Assembly (NCBI GenBank): GCA_042216675.1
Contig: JBDGTS010000027.1
Coordinates: 5,087-25,431 of the forward strand
Source: Halobacteriaceae archaeon
Lineage (GTDB): Archaea; Halobacteriota; Halobacteria; Halobacteriales; Halobacteriaceae
Direction of reading: 5' to 3'
Length of the DNA stretch: 20,345 nt
A model generated the notes under the pieces. It saw nothing but the letters and a program-made list of their open reading frames with translations. It made no database searches and was not told the origin of the DNA. Shown here in pieces: positions 5,700-11,494 of the stretch. Each line of letters begins with the position of its first letter. The stretch's first letter is position 1. A program made the translations under genes and the position numbers.

Positions 5700-6263
5700 T
5701 TACGACAGAGTCACCGTCTGGTCGAGAAGTTGCTTGTCGCTTTCAGTATGGACCATTTGGATTATGTAGTCCGTATTATCGCTGAAGACCTGAGTGGAAT
5801 TCCCATCACTAATCGTGATGAGTGAACCGGTCGAAAAGGTGCTGGCGGAACCAATTGCAGTCCCGTCAACCGTCGCAGAGACGTCAACACTGCTACCAGC
5901 ACCATTCGTCCAACCACTACCGGAAGTCCAACGTGCTACAATACTGTTGTCGCTTGCCGAGCGCACCGTAATCTGAAGTTTGCTCACTTCGATTGAATCT
6001 CCTTGATTATGGGAGATGTCAAAGGCGGCAACAGCGCTAGTCCCGGTCGTGGGGTCCGTATAATCGGTCGGGTTATCGGATACCGAAATACTGGCCGTTG
6101 GTCCCGAATTCCCTACGTTCTGACCGAGCCCTAGCACGAAGGTCCCGATAACGGCGGCAAGAATTACCGTTATCGCAACCATAAGTATCACACCGATGAC
6201 AGGTGAGACGCCCGTCTTGTCCTCGACGAAAGTCGTGAATCGCTCTTTGAGTTGGTCTAACAT
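5700..6263 (-). CDS. pilA: Archaeal type IV pilin (PilA-like, DUF1628/Pilin_N family)
   Basis: Class III signal peptide with the haloarchaeal pilin H-domain G|[29 protein letters not shown], a later HNQGDSI motif and a Ser/Thr-rich beta domain. Start is ATG 6263 (GTG 6290 is an alternative). Confidence 0.92.
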
Positions 6264-6316
6264 GGTTTGATTGCGTGGTTTGGATCGCACGGCCGTCGGA
6301 AAAGCGAGCGGGCGAA

Positions 6317-6488: not shown

Positions 6489-7346
6489 ATGGGAGACTCT
6501 ATCACACTCGTCACCGCCGCAGACCTTGCACGTACCTACGACCCGCCTGTTGACGATCTCGACGGGTGGGAGTTAACCCAACAGCATCAGGAGGCTCTCG
6601 ACTACGCCGCCTCCAACCCAGACGCAGGGTCCTACGCCGTCGCGAGCGCGGTCGGTGCACCCCGCGGGCGCGTCCGGCCGTGGATCGAGGACGACGACCC
6701 GGCGATTCCTGATGCCGCCCGCGGCGTACAGACTGCCGAGGAGCGAGGCTGGATTCCGATTACGACTGATGACGATCCCGACGTGCTACACGCGTGGGTG
6801 ACTCTGACCGCCGCCCTCCTCGCCGGAGGGTCTATCAATCGGCACCATGTGCCGCGCTGGGCCGCCGGAACCGAGCGCGAACGCGACCGGATCACTGGTG
6901 CGCTTGAGACGCTCGGCGTCGAGTGGCGCGACGACCACGCGGATGTTTCCAATCGGGCGACCGAGATTTCACCGTTCAAGTCGTCGGTCCTCGGCCGTGT
7001 CTTCGAGGCTCTCGGCGTTCCTGCTGGTGAGAAGCGCCACGCCGATCTTGCGGTGCCCGACTGGCTCGACGAGGTTCCGGGCTGGCTCCGCCAGCAGTTC
7101 GCCGTCGTGTACGTCGCGAATCGGGCCGAAGAACGGTTCCCTGACGCAGAGGGTGAGCGTGGTGGTATTCGGATTCGCGAGAACCGACCCGAGGCGTATC
7201 TCGATGAACTGGCCGCGTTTCTCTCTCAGGTGACTGGCGAGAAGGTGACCCGGCCGGGTGAGAACAACGTCTATCTCTCCAAAGGTGCGCTGGAGAAGCT
7301 CGCCGCCTTCGACCGTCGCGATAGCGCCATCCGCTCGATGGATTAG
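6489..7346 (+). CDS. Putative DNA-binding protein: N-terminal HTH plus degenerate LAGLIDADG-like domain
   Basis: 285 aa, acidic. HTH-like GSYAVASAVGAPRGRVRPWI; LTAALLAGGSI and QFAVVYVANRA helices with a K..L.VPDWL linker resemble a two-motif LAGLIDADG fold. The ORF call is solid; the domain call is inference. Confidence 0.55.
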   Translation: MGDSITLVTAADLARTYDPPVDDLDGWELTQQHQEALDYAASNPDAGSYAVASAVGAPRGRVRPWIEDDDPAIPDAARGVQTAEERGWIPITTDDDPDVLHAWVTLTAALLAGGSINRHHVPRWAAGTERERDRITGALETLGVEWRDDHADVSNRATEISPFKSSVLGRVFEALGVPAGEKRHADLAVPDWLDEVPGWLRQQFAVVYVANRAEERFPDAEGERGGIRIRENRPEAYLDELAAFLSQVTGEKVTRPGENNVYLSKGALEKLAAFDRRDSAIRSMD

Positions 7347-7348
7347 CG

Positions 7349-7636
7349 TCAGTCCTCCGGTTCGGGGAGTTCGTCGGCGTCGAGGTCGCCCGCGAGGAAC
7401 GCGCGGCCCCGATCGGTGAGCCGGTACGTCTGCCCCTCTTTTTCGAACAGCCCTATCTGATGGAGTTTCTGCAGTTCCCCTGCAGTATAGCGCCTGCTGT
7501 AGTCGATATTCTTCGCCAAATCCCGCGGGGACTCCCAGATGTCGTGCTCTTCGAAGTGCTTCAGTATCTCGTAGTGAATGGGGGACATCCACGGGACACG
7601 CTCTACCATCCGTCTTACGTTGGTGTCTTCGTTCAT
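7349..7636 (-). CDS. phiH1-repressor-like winged-helix transcriptional regulator
   Basis: WMSPIHYEILKHF...SPRDLAKNIDYSRRY...L...GLFEK...YRLTDRGRAFLAGDLDADEL is typical of the haloviral phiH1 repressor family. Start uncertain (7609, 7636 or 7657). Confidence 0.82.
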   Translation of the reverse strand: MNEDTNVRRMVERVPWMSPIHYEILKHFEEHDIWESPRDLAKNIDYSRRYTAGELQKLHQIGLFEKEGQTYRLTDRGRAFLAGDLDADELPEPED

Positions 7637-7676
7637 ACGGGTGTTAACTGGTCGCATTCGGGATTTTTGAGTTGAC

Positions 7677-7703
7677 GATACGTGCCAAGTTTTATCACGT
7701 ATC
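7677..7703. promoter_or_regulatory. Candidate operator/promoter: GATACGTG-N11-CACGTATC enclosing TTTTAT
   Basis: Perfect 8-bp inverted repeat (7677-7684 / 7696-7703) flanking a TATA-like box, between the divergent repressor and the plus-strand integrase operon. Confidence 0.6.
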
Positions 7704-7760
7704 CGTGCTACCGTCTGAGTATCACATCCGTCGTCCGCCGCGTCGAGGAAAAGGAGTCCT

Positions 7761-8009
7761 CCGGCGCGGGTGGGAGGCGCCGGGTGTGCCCCAGCAAGGA
7801 ACACATGACTGACGACACGCGATTTCACCATAACCCCGGCATCTGGTTCGCGCGGTCAGCGACCAGTTTCACTTCCGGCGCGGTGTCGGCTCGCTCTTAT
7901 GTGTCTGTCAGCCATGAGGTCCTTCTGGGGATTGGTTCCCGGTTAGAAACAGGGCGATTGCGGGCGTGTTCCTTGCTGGGGCACCACGGCCCGCTCCCTG
8001 TTGCGCCGG
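7761..8009. repeat. Long nested inverted-repeat element (44-bp arms with a perfect 19-bp core)
   Basis: GTGCCCCAGCAAGGAACAC (7786-7804) is the exact reverse complement of 7966-7984. The arms extend without gaps to 7761 and 8009 (34/44 identical by manual count). Further internal stems are present. Confidence 0.9.
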
Positions 8010-8054
8010 TGAAACTCGCGAACCTGAGAGGGTTCGACCAAACGAATCCGACGC

Positions 8055-8135
8055 ATGAGAGCATACTACAGCGATTTGGTTAGGAGTATCGGTCACGGTC
8101 AAAGTGAAGACGCGCGAGCGGGGTGGTCGGCGTGA
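8055..8135 (+). CDS. Possible 26-aa micro-ORF (MRAYYSDLVRSIGHGQSEDARAGWSA)
   Basis: Its TGA overlaps the GTG of the next ORF (GTGA 8132-8135) after a GGGGTGG SD-like run. Below the ORF-track cutoff. Confidence 0.35.
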   Translation: MRAYYSDLVRSIGHGQSEDARAGWSA

Positions 8136-8296
8136 GCGACCCGATGGACCGCCTCGTCATTCGGGAGTACCGCGAGGAGATCGAGCGCCTTCATTCGGAG
8201 ATCGAGGAGCTTCAACGGCGGAACGCGGCGCTGGAGTCGGTGGTTCGCAAGGCCGTCTTGGAGACTGTCGAACCGTCGGAGCGGGGTGAAGCATGA
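8132..8296 (+). CDS. Small coiled-coil protein, 54 aa (not in ORF track)
   Basis: [54 protein letters not shown]; heptad pattern; stop overlaps the next start (ATGA 8293-8296). Confidence 0.7.
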   Translation: MSDPMDRLVIREYREEIERLHSEIEELQRRNAALESVVRKAVLETVEPSERGEA

Positions 8297-8538
8297 GCGA
8301 CGACGACGCCGACGGGATCACCCTCACCGTCGAAGTGACGCGCGGGACGGACACCGACGACCGCGACAAGCTACGGGCGAAAGTGGAGGCCCGCGACATC
8401 GAGCAACTTGAGCGCCGCGTCGAGGCCGTGAAAGAGCGCCTCGAAACGTGGGCTGACGACCTACGTGAGATTCAGCCGACGGGCGATTCGCGGGCGCTCG
8501 GAGAGGACCAGTCCACCCTCACGGAGGCCGAGTCATGA
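8293..8538 (+). CDS. Small integrase-associated protein
   Basis: 81 aa, acidic, beta-hairpin plus coiled coil; ATGA overlap with the integrase start. Confidence 0.75.
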
Positions 8539-9548
8539 GCGACCTCCAACCGTTGACGCCCGAGGAGGGCGTCGAGATGTACCTCTCGAAGCGTGACGGC
8601 GACGTGAGCGAACACACGCTGGAGAACCACCGCTACCGGCTGACGCCGTTCCTCGACTACTGCGAGCGCGAGGAGATCGAGAACCTGAACGACCTGACGG
8701 GCCGCGACCTGTTCGGGTTCTTCAACGAGCGAAAGGGCGAGGTGAAGGACGTGACGCTGAAGAACCACCTCGCCACGCTCCGCGTCGCCCTGGATTTCTG
8801 GGCGGACGTGGAGGGCGTCGAGAAGGGGATTCGTGAGTCGGTCCCGATGCCGACCCTCACTCCCGACGACGAGACGAGCGACGACGTGCTCCGGACGGAG
8901 CGCGCCGACACCGTGCTCGATGGCCTCGAAACGTTCCGCTACGCGAGCCGGGACCATGTTATCACCCTACTCCTGTGGCGGACGGGGATGCGGATGGGCG
9001 CGCTCCACGGCCTCGACGTGGACGATTACGACGCGAGCGAGCCGTGCTTGACGCTCCGGCACCGGCCCGAGTCGGATACTCCGCTGAAGAACCGGGAGGC
9101 CGGCGAGCGAGACGTTGCGCTTGAGTCGTGGGTTGCGAGCATCGTCGAGGACTATCTCGACCGCCAGCGGTCCGACGCGGTGGAGGACGGTGGCCGCCGC
9201 CCGCTGGTGACGACGCGGGAGGGGCGCGCGAGTCGGACGACGATACGGAACACGCTCTACGACGTGACGCGGCCGTGCCTGTGGGGCGAGTGCCCCCACG
9301 ACCGCGACCCGGACGACTGCGAGGCGGCGGGAGCGAAGAAGGTCGCGAGCAAGTGCCCGTCGAGCGTGAGTCCGCACCCGCTCCGGAAGGGCGCGATTAC
9401 CCGCGAACTGAACAACGACGTGCCGACGGAGATTGTCGGCGGCCGGATGGACGTGACGCAGGCGGTTCTGGAGAAGCACTACGACAAGCGCTCCGAGCGC
9501 GAGAAGATGGCTGTTCGTCGCCGTCTGATGCAGGAGGTGAAAGGATGA
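8535..9548 (+). CDS. int: Tyrosine integrase/recombinase, haloarchaeal SNJ2-like family
   Basis: Catalytic motifs TGMRMGAL (R), TPLKN (K), HPLR (H-x-x-R) and HYD (Y); Cys-rich insert RPC..ECPH...C...KCPSS; N-terminal core-binding domain. Confidence 0.93.
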
Positions 9549-9593
9549 CCGCGATGACCATGACCCCGACGCCGCCGGGCGGATATTCGGGAC

Positions 9594-9606
9594 CCCCGCG
9601 AGTCCA
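9594..9606 (+). other. Putative attR core CCCCGCGAGTCCA (duplicated tRNA 3' end, probably tRNA-Ala)
   Basis: 45 nt after the integrase stop. Resembles the T-stem 3' strand, acceptor strand and discriminator of haloarchaeal tRNA-Ala (5' end GGGCTCG, recalled from memory). The partner copy is not in the window. Confidence 0.65.
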
Positions 9607-9737
9607 TTTCTGTGGGCACCGAAGAAATGGACGAGCCGAGCGTCCGCGAAGCGGACGCGTGGATTTGAAGTAGGGAACTCGCAGCGCCGAGTGTCGCGAG
9701 GCGACCGTCTTCCCGTAGTTCAAGCCCCCGCGAATCC
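9602..9737. repeat. Hairpin-rich tRNA-downstream element with a degenerate tRNA 3'-end copy
   Basis: Stems GTCCATTTCT/AGAAATGGAC (9602-9632) and GCGTCCGC-GAA-GCGGACGC (9640-9658); GGATTTGAA at 9661; GTTCAAGCCCCCGCGAATCC at 9718-9737. Confidence 0.6.
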
Positions 9738-9989
9738 GGTGCTGAAGTTCCAGCGAGACGATCGAATCGAGGCGCGGTTCCGTCCGATCCACCAGCGCGG
9801 GACACGCGTGCCGAGTGAGCGCCGCGACAGGGACCTCATCGCGGCGGCGGTGTCGGTTCCTGTCGAAGAACCGCAAAAAGCGGACGGGCGTCTGACCCGG
9901 GTCCGATTTCGGATACTTCACCTCCTCAACACGGTCGGGAACGGCGCGGAACGGCCGGCACCGGAGACCGGGGCCGACGGCGAGAGGTG

Positions 9990-10172
9990 TCAGCGTCGGG
10001 AGGCGATGAGTTCCATCTCCGCGTCGCAGTCCAGACAGCGGACCCCCGACACGTCCCGGGGGTCGGAGGCGCGCACGGCCACCCGGTCACCGCAGCCCGG
10101 GCACTCGAAGGCCTCGTACTCGTCGTGGGCCCAGTCGATGTCCATCCGTGGGTTCTCGCTGTCCTCGGCCAT
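9990..10172 (-). CDS. Small CPxCG-type zinc-finger protein, 60 aa
   Basis: MAEDSENPRMDIDWAHDEYEAFECPGCG...RCLDCD; start re-assigned to ATG 10172. Confidence 0.78.
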   Translation of the reverse strand: MAEDSENPRMDIDWAHDEYEAFECPGCGDRVAVRASDPRDVSGVRCLDCDAEMELIASRR

Positions 10173-10213
10173 GTGCGGGGGTAGGCGGGCCGAGGGCTTC
10201 AACCCCGGGGCCG

Positions 10214-11494
10214 CTACTCCTCGACGACTTCGACACCACGGTTGTTCACCGCGGCGGGGTCGAGGCCGGCTTCGTTGAGCGCCGTCTTGTACTCGCGCTC
10301 GCACTGCTCGGCGTCCTTCTGCCGGTCGCTGGCGCGCGTACACAGCTCCGCGAGGTCCGCGGGCACGTCGTTCGTCGCGACGATCCAGTGGTTGACGAGG
10401 TCGGACATGCGCCGGATGGGCGACGTGAAGTGCCCGTAAATCTCGAAGTTCAGGGCGTGGTGGCCGCCGAACGGGTCGCTCATGTACTTCGCGCGGGGCA
10501 TCACCTTCATCACCGCGCGCTGAATCTTCGACAGTTGGCGCTGGGGCGCCTCCTCCAGCGTGGCGTTGACGGCCTTCCGAGGGTCGTCCCAACTCGCGCC
10601 GGGGATGGAGACGCCGTCGAGTTCCTGAATCTCCCGGAGGGCGTCGCTCCACTGGTCGGGGGTGGGCTGGGGGTGGACCCGGTAGACGGCCTCCAGGCCG
10701 CGGTCCCACATCAGGGTGTGCGTGACGGCCTTGTTGGCCTTCAGCATCGACTCCTCGATGATGGTGTGCGCGCGGTCCCGCCGGGGGTTGAGGACGAGCG
10801 ACCCGTCTTCCTTGCGTTGTTCGTGCATCCGGTCGGCGAGGTCGTAGGACAGCGCGATCTTCTCGTGCATCTCGCTGTCCTCGTCGTCGAGGCGGTTCTC
10901 ACACTCCGTGTAGGTCAGCCGTTCGTCCGAGCGGACGACGGACTTGTAGATCTCGATGTCCTCGTAGCCGAGCGTCTCCTTGTCGAGGTGCATCTCGACG
11001 GTGTGCGCGAGGCGGTCCTCCTCGGGGACGAGCGAACACACCGTCTCCGCGAGCATGGGCGGGAGCATGTGGACGGTGTAGCCCGGCAGGTACACCGTGT
11101 TCGCGCGGCGGAGCGCCTCGTCCCACATCGTCGTGTCGGGGGTGACGTAGTGTGTCACGTCGGCGATGTGGACCCAGAGGACGTACTCGTCCTCGCGTTC
11201 CTCGACGCTGAGGGCGTCGTCGAAGTCCTGCGCGTCGATGGGGTCGGTCGTCCACGTCGTCATGTCGCGGAGGTCCCGGCGCTCGTCGACTTCGGCCTCG
11301 ATTTCGGCCGTCACGTCGGCGGTTCGTTCCTCCGCCTCGTCTATCACTTCCGGCGGGAACTCGTCGGGAATCTCGAACTTCTCGAAGAGGGACTCGCGTT
11401 CGCTCGCGAGGCGGTCGGCGGTCTCCTGTGAAATTTCGACGGGCCCCTGTCCCTCGGGGGTCCCGGCGGCCGCCTGTTGACTCTGCTCGGTCAT
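10214..11494 (-). CDS. rnr: Ribonuclease R / RNase II family (RNB domain) exoribonuclease
   Basis: TTDPIDAQDFDDALS, VHIADV, TVYLPG...MLP, HHAL...YGHFTSPIRRMSDLVNH; start ATG 11494. Confidence 0.93.
   Translation of the reverse strand: MTEQSQQAAAGTPEGQGPVEISQETADRLASERESLFEKFEIPDEFPPEVIDEAEERTADVTAEIEAEVDERRDLRDMTTWTTDPIDAQDFDDALSVEEREDEYVLWVHIADVTHYVTPDTTMWDEALRRANTVYLPGYTVHMLPPMLAETVCSLVPEEDRLAHTVEMHLDKETLGYEDIEIYKSVVRSDERLTYTECENRLDDEDSEMHEKIALSYDLADRMHEQRKEDGSLVLNPRRDRAHTIIEESMLKANKAVTHTLMWDRGLEAVYRVHPQPTPDQWSDALREIQELDGVSIPGASWDDPRKAVNATLEEAPQRQLSKIQRAVMKVMPRAKYMSDPFGGHHALNFEIYGHFTSPIRRMSDLVNHWIVATNDVPADLAELCTRASDRQKDAEQCEREYKTALNEAGLDPAAVNNRGVEVVEE

Follow-up and report, generated by a model that had tools for sequence, protein, structure and literature searches.

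What is the function of a long, nested inverted repeat that lies upstream of the integrase operon of an integrated archaeal virus? This question is raised by positions 7761-8009 of the stretch of DNA analysed here (20,345 nucleotides (nt) of contig JBDGTS010000027.1 from a Halobacteriaceae archaeon; hereafter, "the window" refers to this whole stretch), which is part of a haloarchaeal contig with an integrated betapleolipovirus. In the original prediction, made from the letters of the window, the repeat was described as an element of ~250 nt with alternative pairings, for which three roles were proposed: (i) a structured RNA leader, switch or non-coding RNA controlling the excision operon; (ii) a folded single-stranded DNA signal; or (iii) the arms of an invertible segment. 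The reading favoured here, tentatively and at somewhat less than an even chance, is that of a promoter-plus-leader control region of the integrase operon whose two arms are duplicated 19-bp cis-sites. The element would then be the control region of the integrase (excision) operon of the provirus, not one folded molecule. From the earlier interpretation, its non-coding nature, its position upstream of the integrase operon, its membership of a selected region and the placement of its right half in a predicted structured leader are retained, while the single covarying fold of ~250 nt is not.

The repeat is a real feature of this DNA, and its arms and inner stems are far beyond chance. As originally described, it has arms of 44 nt each (77% complementary, separated by 161 nt) with a perfect 19-bp core (7786-7804/7966-7984). 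Directly inside, the inner pairing has one bulge (7906) and one mismatch (7808/7912); further in, the stem 7836-7843/7882-7889 is made of six Watson-Crick and two G-T pairs, and the stem 7844-7851/7859-7865 has a single bulged T. Likewise, the words said to allow mutually exclusive pairings stand where they had been located: CCGGCGC at 7761 and 7875, and GCGCCGG at 7777 and 8003. Within the 20-kb window there is no larger inverted repeat at a spacing of 500 nt or less. The fold energy was compared with that of 200 dinucleotide shuffles per strand, a control proposed along with the original prediction. Folded as RNA, 7761-8009 reaches -129.5 kcal/mol on either strand and lies below all the shuffles on both of them (z-scores of -4.9 for plus and -7.3 for minus; 0/200 shuffles as good). 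Folded as DNA, 7755-8015 gives z-scores of -4.3 and -5.7 on the two strands (again, 0/200 shuffles as good).

The 19-nt core of each arm has an internal symmetry, which can be described as a 7-5-7 interrupted palindrome. This pattern finds a full match in the window only at the two arms, and no further good copies of the arm motif or of the 7-5-7 pattern were found in the provirus. A second, imperfect pair of arms of ~30 nt is formed by the inner repeat together with 7789-7804 and 7918-7930; the latter stretch, a third and degenerate copy of the arm, pairs with the left arm in the plus-strand consensus fold.

Regarding conservation, comparisons of the block that contains the repeat are based on two alignable sequences: the window and L033, a metagenome contig recovered by an exact-word scan and the only close relative of the block found (a metagenome scan with the 19-mer returned three loci, of which only L033 is related). 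L033 aligns to the window over 7371-8140 at 74% identity. Within this alignment, a conserved non-coding block stands out, with 85% identity by blastn over 7729-8109, and the repeat itself is kept at 85% (212/249 positions identical), i.e. conservation in a relative is present. The left half of the block (7739-7847) is its best-conserved part, at 93-95% identity; the left arm stretch 7775-7807 is invariant, and in the local hairpin 7761-7783 the only variable bases are 7771-7774, including a 1-nt indel, all of them in the loop. In the right arm, L033 differs at 7969, 7983, 7984, 7988 and 7989. The heptamer [AG]TTTCAC is enriched in the block (three of its five copies in the window), and a single copy survives in L033.

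The surroundings are far more diverged, to the point of being unalignable or saturated. The repressor promoter region (7660-7719) is 30-33% identical to L033; the gene of the divergent winged-helix (wHTH) repressor shows 67% nucleotide and 65% protein identity, with a synonymous divergence (pS) of 0.63, which is saturated; and protein identity is 48% for the integrase and 43% for a pilin. The first open reading frame (ORF) downstream of the block is unrelated in L033, and the host flank is also different. The divergence of the block is four to seven times below that of neighbouring synonymous sites. Two stretches inside the block have diverged: the spacer 7877-7894 (7 of 18 positions) and 8020-8049, the least conserved stretch, at 50% identity. 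Since neutral sites within the block have thus diverged, it is selection that preserves the rest, and not a recent transfer. Conservation reaches 32 nt beyond the left arm and ~100-126 nt beyond the right one; in consequence, the arms are not the ends of the element.

Beyond L033, the block has next to no relatives. No homolog was found (i) by blastn against phage and plasmid collections; (ii) in 55 genomes of the family and a 400-genome sample of the class; or (iii) in IMG/VR, whether scanned by pattern or with the translated block or the wHTH alignment as query. A sample of the order, also of 400 genomes and overlapping with that of the class, returned only matches of up to 37 nt in seven genomes, by context unrelated and apparently in coding sequence. 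A profile search with nhmmer over the collected loci and the genome of origin, before the wHTH loci were added, gave no match to the block. The 17 genome loci found via the integrase have no nucleotide similarity in the gap, and in 13 such loci no inverted repeat in the 1.2 kb before int has arms exceeding 27 nt (the largest among these 13 is that of L019, located within ORFs). Homologs of the wHTH repressor occur, by protein search, in 145 of 401 genomes in the order (the one with the window among them), and 29 loci were taken for comparison; at the syntenic place of two of these, the block profile has weak matches (L051, E-value 0.014; L050, E-value 0.085).

The block is non-coding and belongs to a selected regulatory region. 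In the original prediction, an ATG at 7805 and the purine-rich sequence upstream of it would be sequestered by pairing. Actually, a frame of 92 codons from this ATG is open in both the window and L033, but its amino acid identity is 68% at 83% nucleotide identity, the ratio of nonsynonymous to synonymous divergence (pN/pS) is 0.8, and substitutions are distributed as 11/22/21 over the three codon positions. Its GC content at third codon positions (GC3) is 0.66 and its isoelectric point (pI) is 10, as opposed to 0.76-0.89 and 4.3-5.1 in the neighbouring genes, and no homolog was found in a collection of 5.8 billion proteins. Across all six frames of the block, pN/pS ranges from 0.58 to 1.35. 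ATG 7805 was rejected as a gene start for lack of coding constraint, a GC3 and pI unlike those of its neighbours and the absence of homologs, and its sequestration is therefore moot. At the right end of the block, a frame of 26 codons is open in L033 too, with 18 of 26 residues identical, and its ATG (8055) aligns with the ATG of the first gene of L051; two possible readings of this frame are an upstream ORF and what is left of a first gene that was lost.

If the region is selected, is it selected as one fold? The 64 pairs of the original prediction were scored on the window and L033 against 500 shuffles and, in addition, a consensus fold was compared with 150 column shuffles. On the plus strand, 50 of the 64 pairs are invariant, one is compensated (7810/7910, T-A to C-G), three have one-sided changes that keep the pair, and ten are broken. 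Seven of these ten fall in the 36-pair outer helix, where none is compensated. On these two sequences, covariation for a nested fold does not exceed that of shuffles: 239 of 500 shuffles equal that fold, and the minus strand behaves similarly. The minimum-energy fold of each sequence loses 15-17 of its ~90 pairs in the other one. The consensus fold (114 pairs) has a low energy (z-score -3.3 to -6.3) and five compensated pairs on the plus strand and four on the minus strand, numbers matched by 63/150 and 80/150 column shuffles, respectively. Substitutions are weakly and inconsistently enriched at predicted unpaired sites (p from 0.0009 to 0.38, depending on reference and strand). The argument that G-U-type pairs in the inner stems favour a folded single strand turned out to be ambiguous, inasmuch as some changes in L033 fit the plus strand only and others the minus strand only. 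No Rfam 15 family matches the window at gathering score; at E-values up to 5, the only match in 7600-10300 is to SECIS_2, unrelated and outside the element. A pairing between the leader and the start region of the first gene was also considered and dropped, as it differs between the window and L033. Of the outer helix, L033 retains an 18-nt core with a single mismatch, whereas the pairs that extend it decay uncompensated, and duplicated sites fit this better than one long helix. A long and thermodynamically stable inverted repeat, then, need not be one RNA fold.

Between the arms lies a promoter-like module, made of a 13-nt motif, a spacer and a TATA-like box. The motif was looked for in 36 sources and, in six of them, it is located in the gap that separates the repressor gene from the integrase operon, on the strand of the latter, with at most one mismatch in the window, L033, L050, HRPV9 and L013, and two in L051. 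In all six loci the distance between the motif and the TATA-like box is 17-20 nt. The pattern of change between the window and L033 is itself promoter-like: one of 13 positions in the motif, 7 of 18 in the spacer, and none in the box. Two types of loci can be distinguished: (i) L050, HRPV9 and L013, where the first ATG comes 23-24 nt after the TATA-like box, which is the geometry of leaderless haloarchaeal mRNAs; and (ii) the window, L033 and L051, where it comes 151-153 nt after the box. This geometry suggests a transcription start toward the operon near 7925 in the window. As the module stands between the arms, the left arm is probably upstream of the transcription start. In the HRPV9 genome (L030, NC_048160.1), the stretch 1704-1845 has the motif and the TATA-like box inside the annotated ORF4, and an 86-aa Zn-ribbon protein resembling the one in L050 would begin 23 nt after the box, with the ATG at 1704; ORF4 of HRPV9 has probably been annotated with a start too far upstream.

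Downstream of the predicted start, the window and L033 share one order: from ~7925, a long hairpin, a short hairpin, ~20 nt and AUG 8055, in a predicted leader of ~130 nt. In the long hairpin, whose fold was fitted to these data, all the substitutions of L033 are in loops or bulges or keep the pair, and one pair is compensated (7965/7988, C-G to T-A); in the short hairpin, within the least conserved stretch 8020-8049, the pair 8021/8034 changes from A-T to G-C. A parallel is found in L051, a syntenic locus (wHTH gene, 444-bp gap, Zn-ribbon ORFs and integrase), which has the same layout of a long hairpin, a short hairpin, ~20 nt and AUG at the same place, in unrelated sequence. The L051 leader folds at -79.8 kcal/mol in the sense of the operon (z-score -6.9, and -8.1 in separate shuffles), versus -65.0 kcal/mol on the other strand (z-score -2.6). 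This strand specificity points to G-U pairs and, with them, to RNA. The possibility that the L051 leader is a dispersed palindromic element was ruled out, as it is present in a single copy in its genome.

From the repeat and its conservation, the lack of a coding signal, the promoter geometry common to the six loci and the recurrence of the two hairpins, we infer a transcription start, a direction of regulation and a binding partner, as follows. The internal module (7864-7901) would drive transcription toward the integrase operon from ~7925, so that the right arm would lie inside the mRNA, where the two hairpins precede the first AUG. By affecting how stable the mRNA is or how accessible its start codon, such a leader might limit or time operon expression. 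Some 130 bp before the predicted start, the left arm is a second, flipped copy of the 19-bp interrupted palindrome, and the two copies, along with the degenerate third one on the start site, might act as paired cis-sites. Two options can be considered: (i) a dimeric regulator might bind the copies as DNA and clamp or loop the promoter; and (ii) in read-in transcripts from the repressor-side TATA-like box, the left copy might pair with the right one and refold the leader, in which case the left arm would compete with local hairpins.

Several points weigh against this promoter-plus-leader reading. The recognition region of the neighbouring repressor (codons 36-70) is strongly different in L033 (nonsynonymous divergence, pN, 0.385) while the arms are the same, and so this repressor is no obvious binder. 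The TATA-like box of the window is weak; two further matches to the motif, with two mismatches, lie in L069 and L075, outside the six loci; and the examined stretch of L050 has no integrase. Covariation is significant neither in the consensus fold nor in that of the original prediction. On its own, the leader is moderately stable in the window and L033 (z-score -2.4 to -3.4) with little strand preference, and the best-conserved part of the block, the left half, is unstructured alone (z-scores -0.5 and -0.8). Besides, start site, leader and transcriptional direction are all predicted from sequence, and a look-up of sequencing runs returned none of RNA that contains the stretch.

Table 1. Features of the control region and of the adjoining genes, in coordinates of the window (a dot indicates that no strand is assigned).
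Feature	Position	Strand	Basis and remarks
Conserved non-coding block containing the repeat	7729-8135	+	333/403 aligned positions identical to L033 (83%)
Left arm	7761-7804	.	Repeat search; perfect core 7786-7804, with 7-5-7 palindromic symmetry of its own
Local hairpin (7761-7767 with 7777-7783)	7761-7783	+	Consensus fold; competitor of the outer long-range helix
Inner inverted repeat (7805-7818 with 7901-7915)	7805-7915	.	Sequence reading
13-nt motif	7864-7876	+	Common to six proviral loci
Spacer, 18 nt, fixed length, free sequence	7877-7894	+	7/18 positions differ from L033
TATA-like box	7895-7901	+	Invariant in L033
Third, degenerate arm copy	7918-7930	.	Right-arm orientation; on the predicted start site; sequence reading
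Predicted long leader hairpin (~77 nt)	7936-8012	+	Consensus fold; right arm at its tip
Right arm	7966-8009	.	Repeat search; core 7966-7984 at the tip of the predicted leader hairpin
Predicted short leader hairpin	8019-8036	+	Predicted fold
26-codon open frame, TGA overlapping the GTG of the 54-aa ORF	8055-8135	+	Sequence reading
PhiH1-like winged-helix (wHTH) repressor gene, 95 aa from ATG 7636	7349-7636	-	phrog_2440 "transcriptional regulator", 2.1e-20
Palindrome (arms 7677-7684/7696-7703, 8 bp, perfect) around TTTTAT 7691-7696	7677-7703	.	Repeat search
Integrase operon	8132-9548	+	Three ORFs with overlapping stop/start codons; Pfam
54-aa coiled-coil ORF, GTG start	8132-8296	+	Sequence reading
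DUF7389 ORF	8293-8538	+	Pfam
SNJ2-type tyrosine integrase	8535-9548	+	Pfam PF02899 and PF00589

As for the genomic context, the core genes on the minus strand of the window have pleolipovirus PHROGs as matches, among them an NTPase (phrog_1979) along with spike-like and VP3-like proteins. The repeat sits in a 495-bp gap between the divergent start codons of the wHTH gene (7636) and the operon (8132), upstream of the integrase operon as had been stated. The repressor is 42.7% identical to the "PhiH1-like repressor" of HRPV9 (tblastn) and has weak, sub-cut-off Pfam wHTH matches. Its gene has a TATA-like box of its own ~30 nt upstream of the ATG. The palindrome of Table 1, 41-67 nt from the repressor start codon and ~190 nt from the conserved promoter module, is a candidate for both an operator of the repressor and an upstream promoter; L033 does not conserve it, and each of the two repressor genes has its own, different repeats beside the start codon. 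When compared with L033, the last 23 aligned codons of the wHTH gene (7349-7420) are near-invariant (pN 0.039, pS 0.66), and this pattern, along with the changed recognition region, suggests a conserved wing or dimer surface with a changed DNA specificity. Over 99% of the query, the integrase has 45.2% identity with SNJ2 Int; for HHPV4 Int the figure is 47.7% (45-48% across SNJ2, HHPV4 and HRPV9). With an integrase that ends its operon and a divergent PhiH1-like repressor, the region has the gene arrangement of the SNJ2-type integrase-operon control regions, of which it would be a variant.

Other observations concern the provirus as a whole. Just after the integrase gene, 14 nt (9594-9607) repeat exactly those with which the contig begins (L045 1-14); this match is probably the core of the attachment site, which in SNJ2 also has 14 bp, and would imply a provirus of ~14.7 kb. 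No tRNA was found. The 69 nt at 9598-9666 are 88% identical to contig C41:136-204 and deeply covered by many related metagenome contigs. Upstream of the window, on the integrase strand, there is a Rep-Arvir-like gene (DUF7845, phrog_3288; L045 2217-4019, contig C30), followed by the betapleolipovirus origin hairpin motif (L045 4220-4250), whose stem shows a compensated change of GGC/GCC to CCC/GGG with respect to SNJ2 and G032. The provirus also contains, at 5700-6290, a gene for an archaeal type IV pilin (Pilin_N, 3.4e-21; 43% amino acid identity in L033); type IV pili reportedly figure in the biology of SNJ2 (PMC12426801). Finally, a second variant of 7025-7280, part of a provirus gene of 285 aa, with ~20 substitutions, was seen in contigs of both of two sequencing runs, which indicates that related strains coexist in the sample.

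Other readings of the repeat have to be weighed against the control region. Two of them keep a transcript as the active molecule. A leader of ~400 nt, started at the repressor-side promoter within the palindrome, would hold both pairing arms and could act as a switch through exclusive partners, the left arm pairing with 7918-7930 or with the right arm, next to local hairpins at 7761-7783 and 7960-7994. The palindrome surrounds a TATA-like box at the same relative place as the Orf4 operator and the PInt TATA box of SNJ2; conservation with L033 starts at 7729, just downstream of TTTTAT; the consensus fold closes the block (7730-7745 with 8115-8131, all five substitutions being compatible on the plus strand) at an energy that is low against column shuffles (z-score -3.3 to -4.7); and alternative partners of the left arm exist in both sequences. 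Nevertheless, such a long RNA is unlikely: the seven broken pairs of the outer helix, compensation at the level of shuffles and the pairs lost between minimum-energy folds all speak against it, the palindrome and its box are not conserved, Rfam has no match, and a conserved promoter module stands inside the supposed fold. According to the other transcript-based reading, the TATA-like box between the arms fires leftward too, giving a divergent small RNA or a long repressor leader whose 5' end is the 13-nt motif, and both divergent transcripts carry the same 19-nt hairpin sequence. The distance of the motif from the box in the six loci is about that of a leftward start, the left half is highly conserved, the minus-strand hairpin 7783-7761 is followed by four T (7750-7747), and minus-strand folds score better over the whole repeat. 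Still, the left half alone is unstructured on the minus strand of the window (z-score -0.8), the repressor gene has its own TATA-like box, and the geometry of the first ORF in three loci favours rightward firing; this reading is very unlikely.

The remaining readings concern the DNA itself. If the repeat were a single-strand origin or another folded single-stranded DNA (ssDNA) signal, the displaced strand of rolling-circle replication would fold here to prime the synthesis of the complementary strand. Bacterial single-strand origins are typically sharply bounded, conserved non-coding cassettes, and the z-scores of the DNA fold agree with such a role. As for the betapleolipovirus Rep-Arvir origin (PMC13107129), the same provirus has a Rep-Arvir-like gene (C30:2217-4019) and an origin hairpin motif shared with SNJ2 and G032, and the block is rich in intrastrand pairing; on the other hand, the repeat is ~8.7 kb away and not general in related proviruses. 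According to that paper, SNJ2 makes ssDNA intermediates, and plasmids became less stable when the SNJ2 region before int was truncated; neither "sso" nor "single-strand origin" occurs in its text, and it mentions no lagging-strand origin. An ssDNA role is quite unlikely: in L050, HRPV9 and L013 the promoter module comes without any comparable repeat, the whole gap is much shorter in SNJ2 and HRPV9 (234-239 bp), and the pairing is not preserved in L033. A resemblance between the origin stem (L045 4228-4246) and the arm 7966-7984, with two mismatches to the 7-5-7 pattern, arises by chance in 72/200 shuffles and is absent in L051 and G032.

An invertible promoter switch, in which the 19-bp arms are recombination sites and flipping of 7805-7965 redirects the promoter from the integrase operon to the repressor gene, is highly improbable too. 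DNA inversion by the integrase family is known in haloviruses (the L segment of phiH; phiCh1), and the fim switch is an invertible promoter segment. As in these systems, inverted repeats (here, perfect over 19 bp) flank a short segment (161 bp) with an inferred promoter module beside a tyrosine recombinase gene, 0.5 kb away, and the centre of the repeat (7885) is within 1 nt of the midpoint of the two start codons. Unlike them, one orientation is seen, and nested imperfect pairing extends well beyond the arms. Contigs of two runs of one study are collinear with the window over 7251-8770 and 7398-8770, as is L033, and contigs of three DNA runs of one study show no joint in 7398-8576, i.e. no inversion or deletion, although minority or rare forms are invisible in contigs. 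The observed orientation faces the integrase operon despite the provirus being integrated, related loci keep the promoter without flanking repeats, and arm identity decays at the edge in L033. If true, this would be a DNA-inversion lysogeny switch in an archaeal virus, presumably operated by the adjacent tyrosine recombinase. Just as improbable is a repeat of no regulatory function: a mere local inverted duplication, an insertion resembling a miniature inverted-repeat transposable element (MITE), or a gene for a small basic protein of 92 codons. It is true that the gap is ~260 bp longer than in SNJ2 and HRPV9, that the 92-codon frame is open in both sequences and that, by estimate, L033 does not have significantly fewer changes in the core (three) than the block as a whole would predict. 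But the low divergence of the block contradicts a lack of function, and the data on the 92-codon frame contradict a gene. The MITE reading is unlikely, as the repeat is present in a single copy in its own genome and in none of the 55 family genomes or the order and class samples, conservation runs past both arms, no target-site duplication is seen at the arm ends, and both proviruses have it at the same place.

Whether a temperate archaeal virus remains integrated is decided by the control of its integrase expression. Among pleolipoviruses, this control has been worked out in a single one, SNJ2, and the control region of the window is different and much larger. If confirmed, the reading as promoter, leader and paired sites would provide a defined cis-element and a second regulatory layer (looping, leader refolding or inversion) on top of the repressor paradigm of SNJ2. 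Full-text searches of the literature on pleolipoviruses and haloarchaeal proviruses, judged at the level of the listed records, returned no paper on such an element; nor was a description of the HRPV9-type promoter module found in the literature examined.

Apart from the inversion and origin systems discussed above, three known systems are closest to the region. Paired or auxiliary operators loop promoters in the lac (O1/O2/O3) and gal (OE/OI) systems. Similarly, here two copies of an interrupted palindrome, ~180 bp apart, flank a promoter-like module, with a weaker copy at the predicted start site; unlike those operators, the arms may act as RNA, and an archaeal viral example was not found in the literature examined. 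The module of HRPV9 and Halorubrum distributum-type loci shares with the window the 13-nt motif (one mismatch), the spacing to the TATA-like box, the operon strand and the location in the gap between repressor and integrase genes; it differs in that the ATG follows 23 nt after the box, and it has neither the two-hairpin leader nor the flanking 19-bp repeat.

The PInt region of SNJ2 is the nearest system in terms of gene order. There, the integrase operon starts 114 or 132 nt upstream of orf3 (PMC5861418), and Orf4 represses through a palindrome that adjoins the PInt TATA box next to orf4, while a second palindrome is located in the leader, mutation of which left repression unaffected (PMC10123103). 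Both regions have (i) a three-gene operon with an SNJ2-type integrase as its last gene and, divergent from it, a PhiH1-like wHTH repressor; (ii) a repressor-side palindrome beside a TATA-like box; and (iii) a leader of similar length, predicted here at ~130 nt and mapped there at 114 or 132 nt. They differ in the size of the gap (495 bp in the window, 234 bp in SNJ2 and, as annotated, 239 bp in HRPV9), they have no nucleotide similarity, the 13-nt motif is absent from the scanned SNJ2 stretch, and the SNJ2 promoter is not bracketed by a 19-bp repeat. The SNJ2 control region was mapped experimentally, whereas that of the window is known from its sequence. In summary, the repeat is a real, selected, non-coding element that falls outside the described families; it is best read as a promoter-plus-leader control region with a 19-bp site present twice, in opposite orientations, which departs from the SNJ2-type control region to which its gene neighbourhood corresponds.

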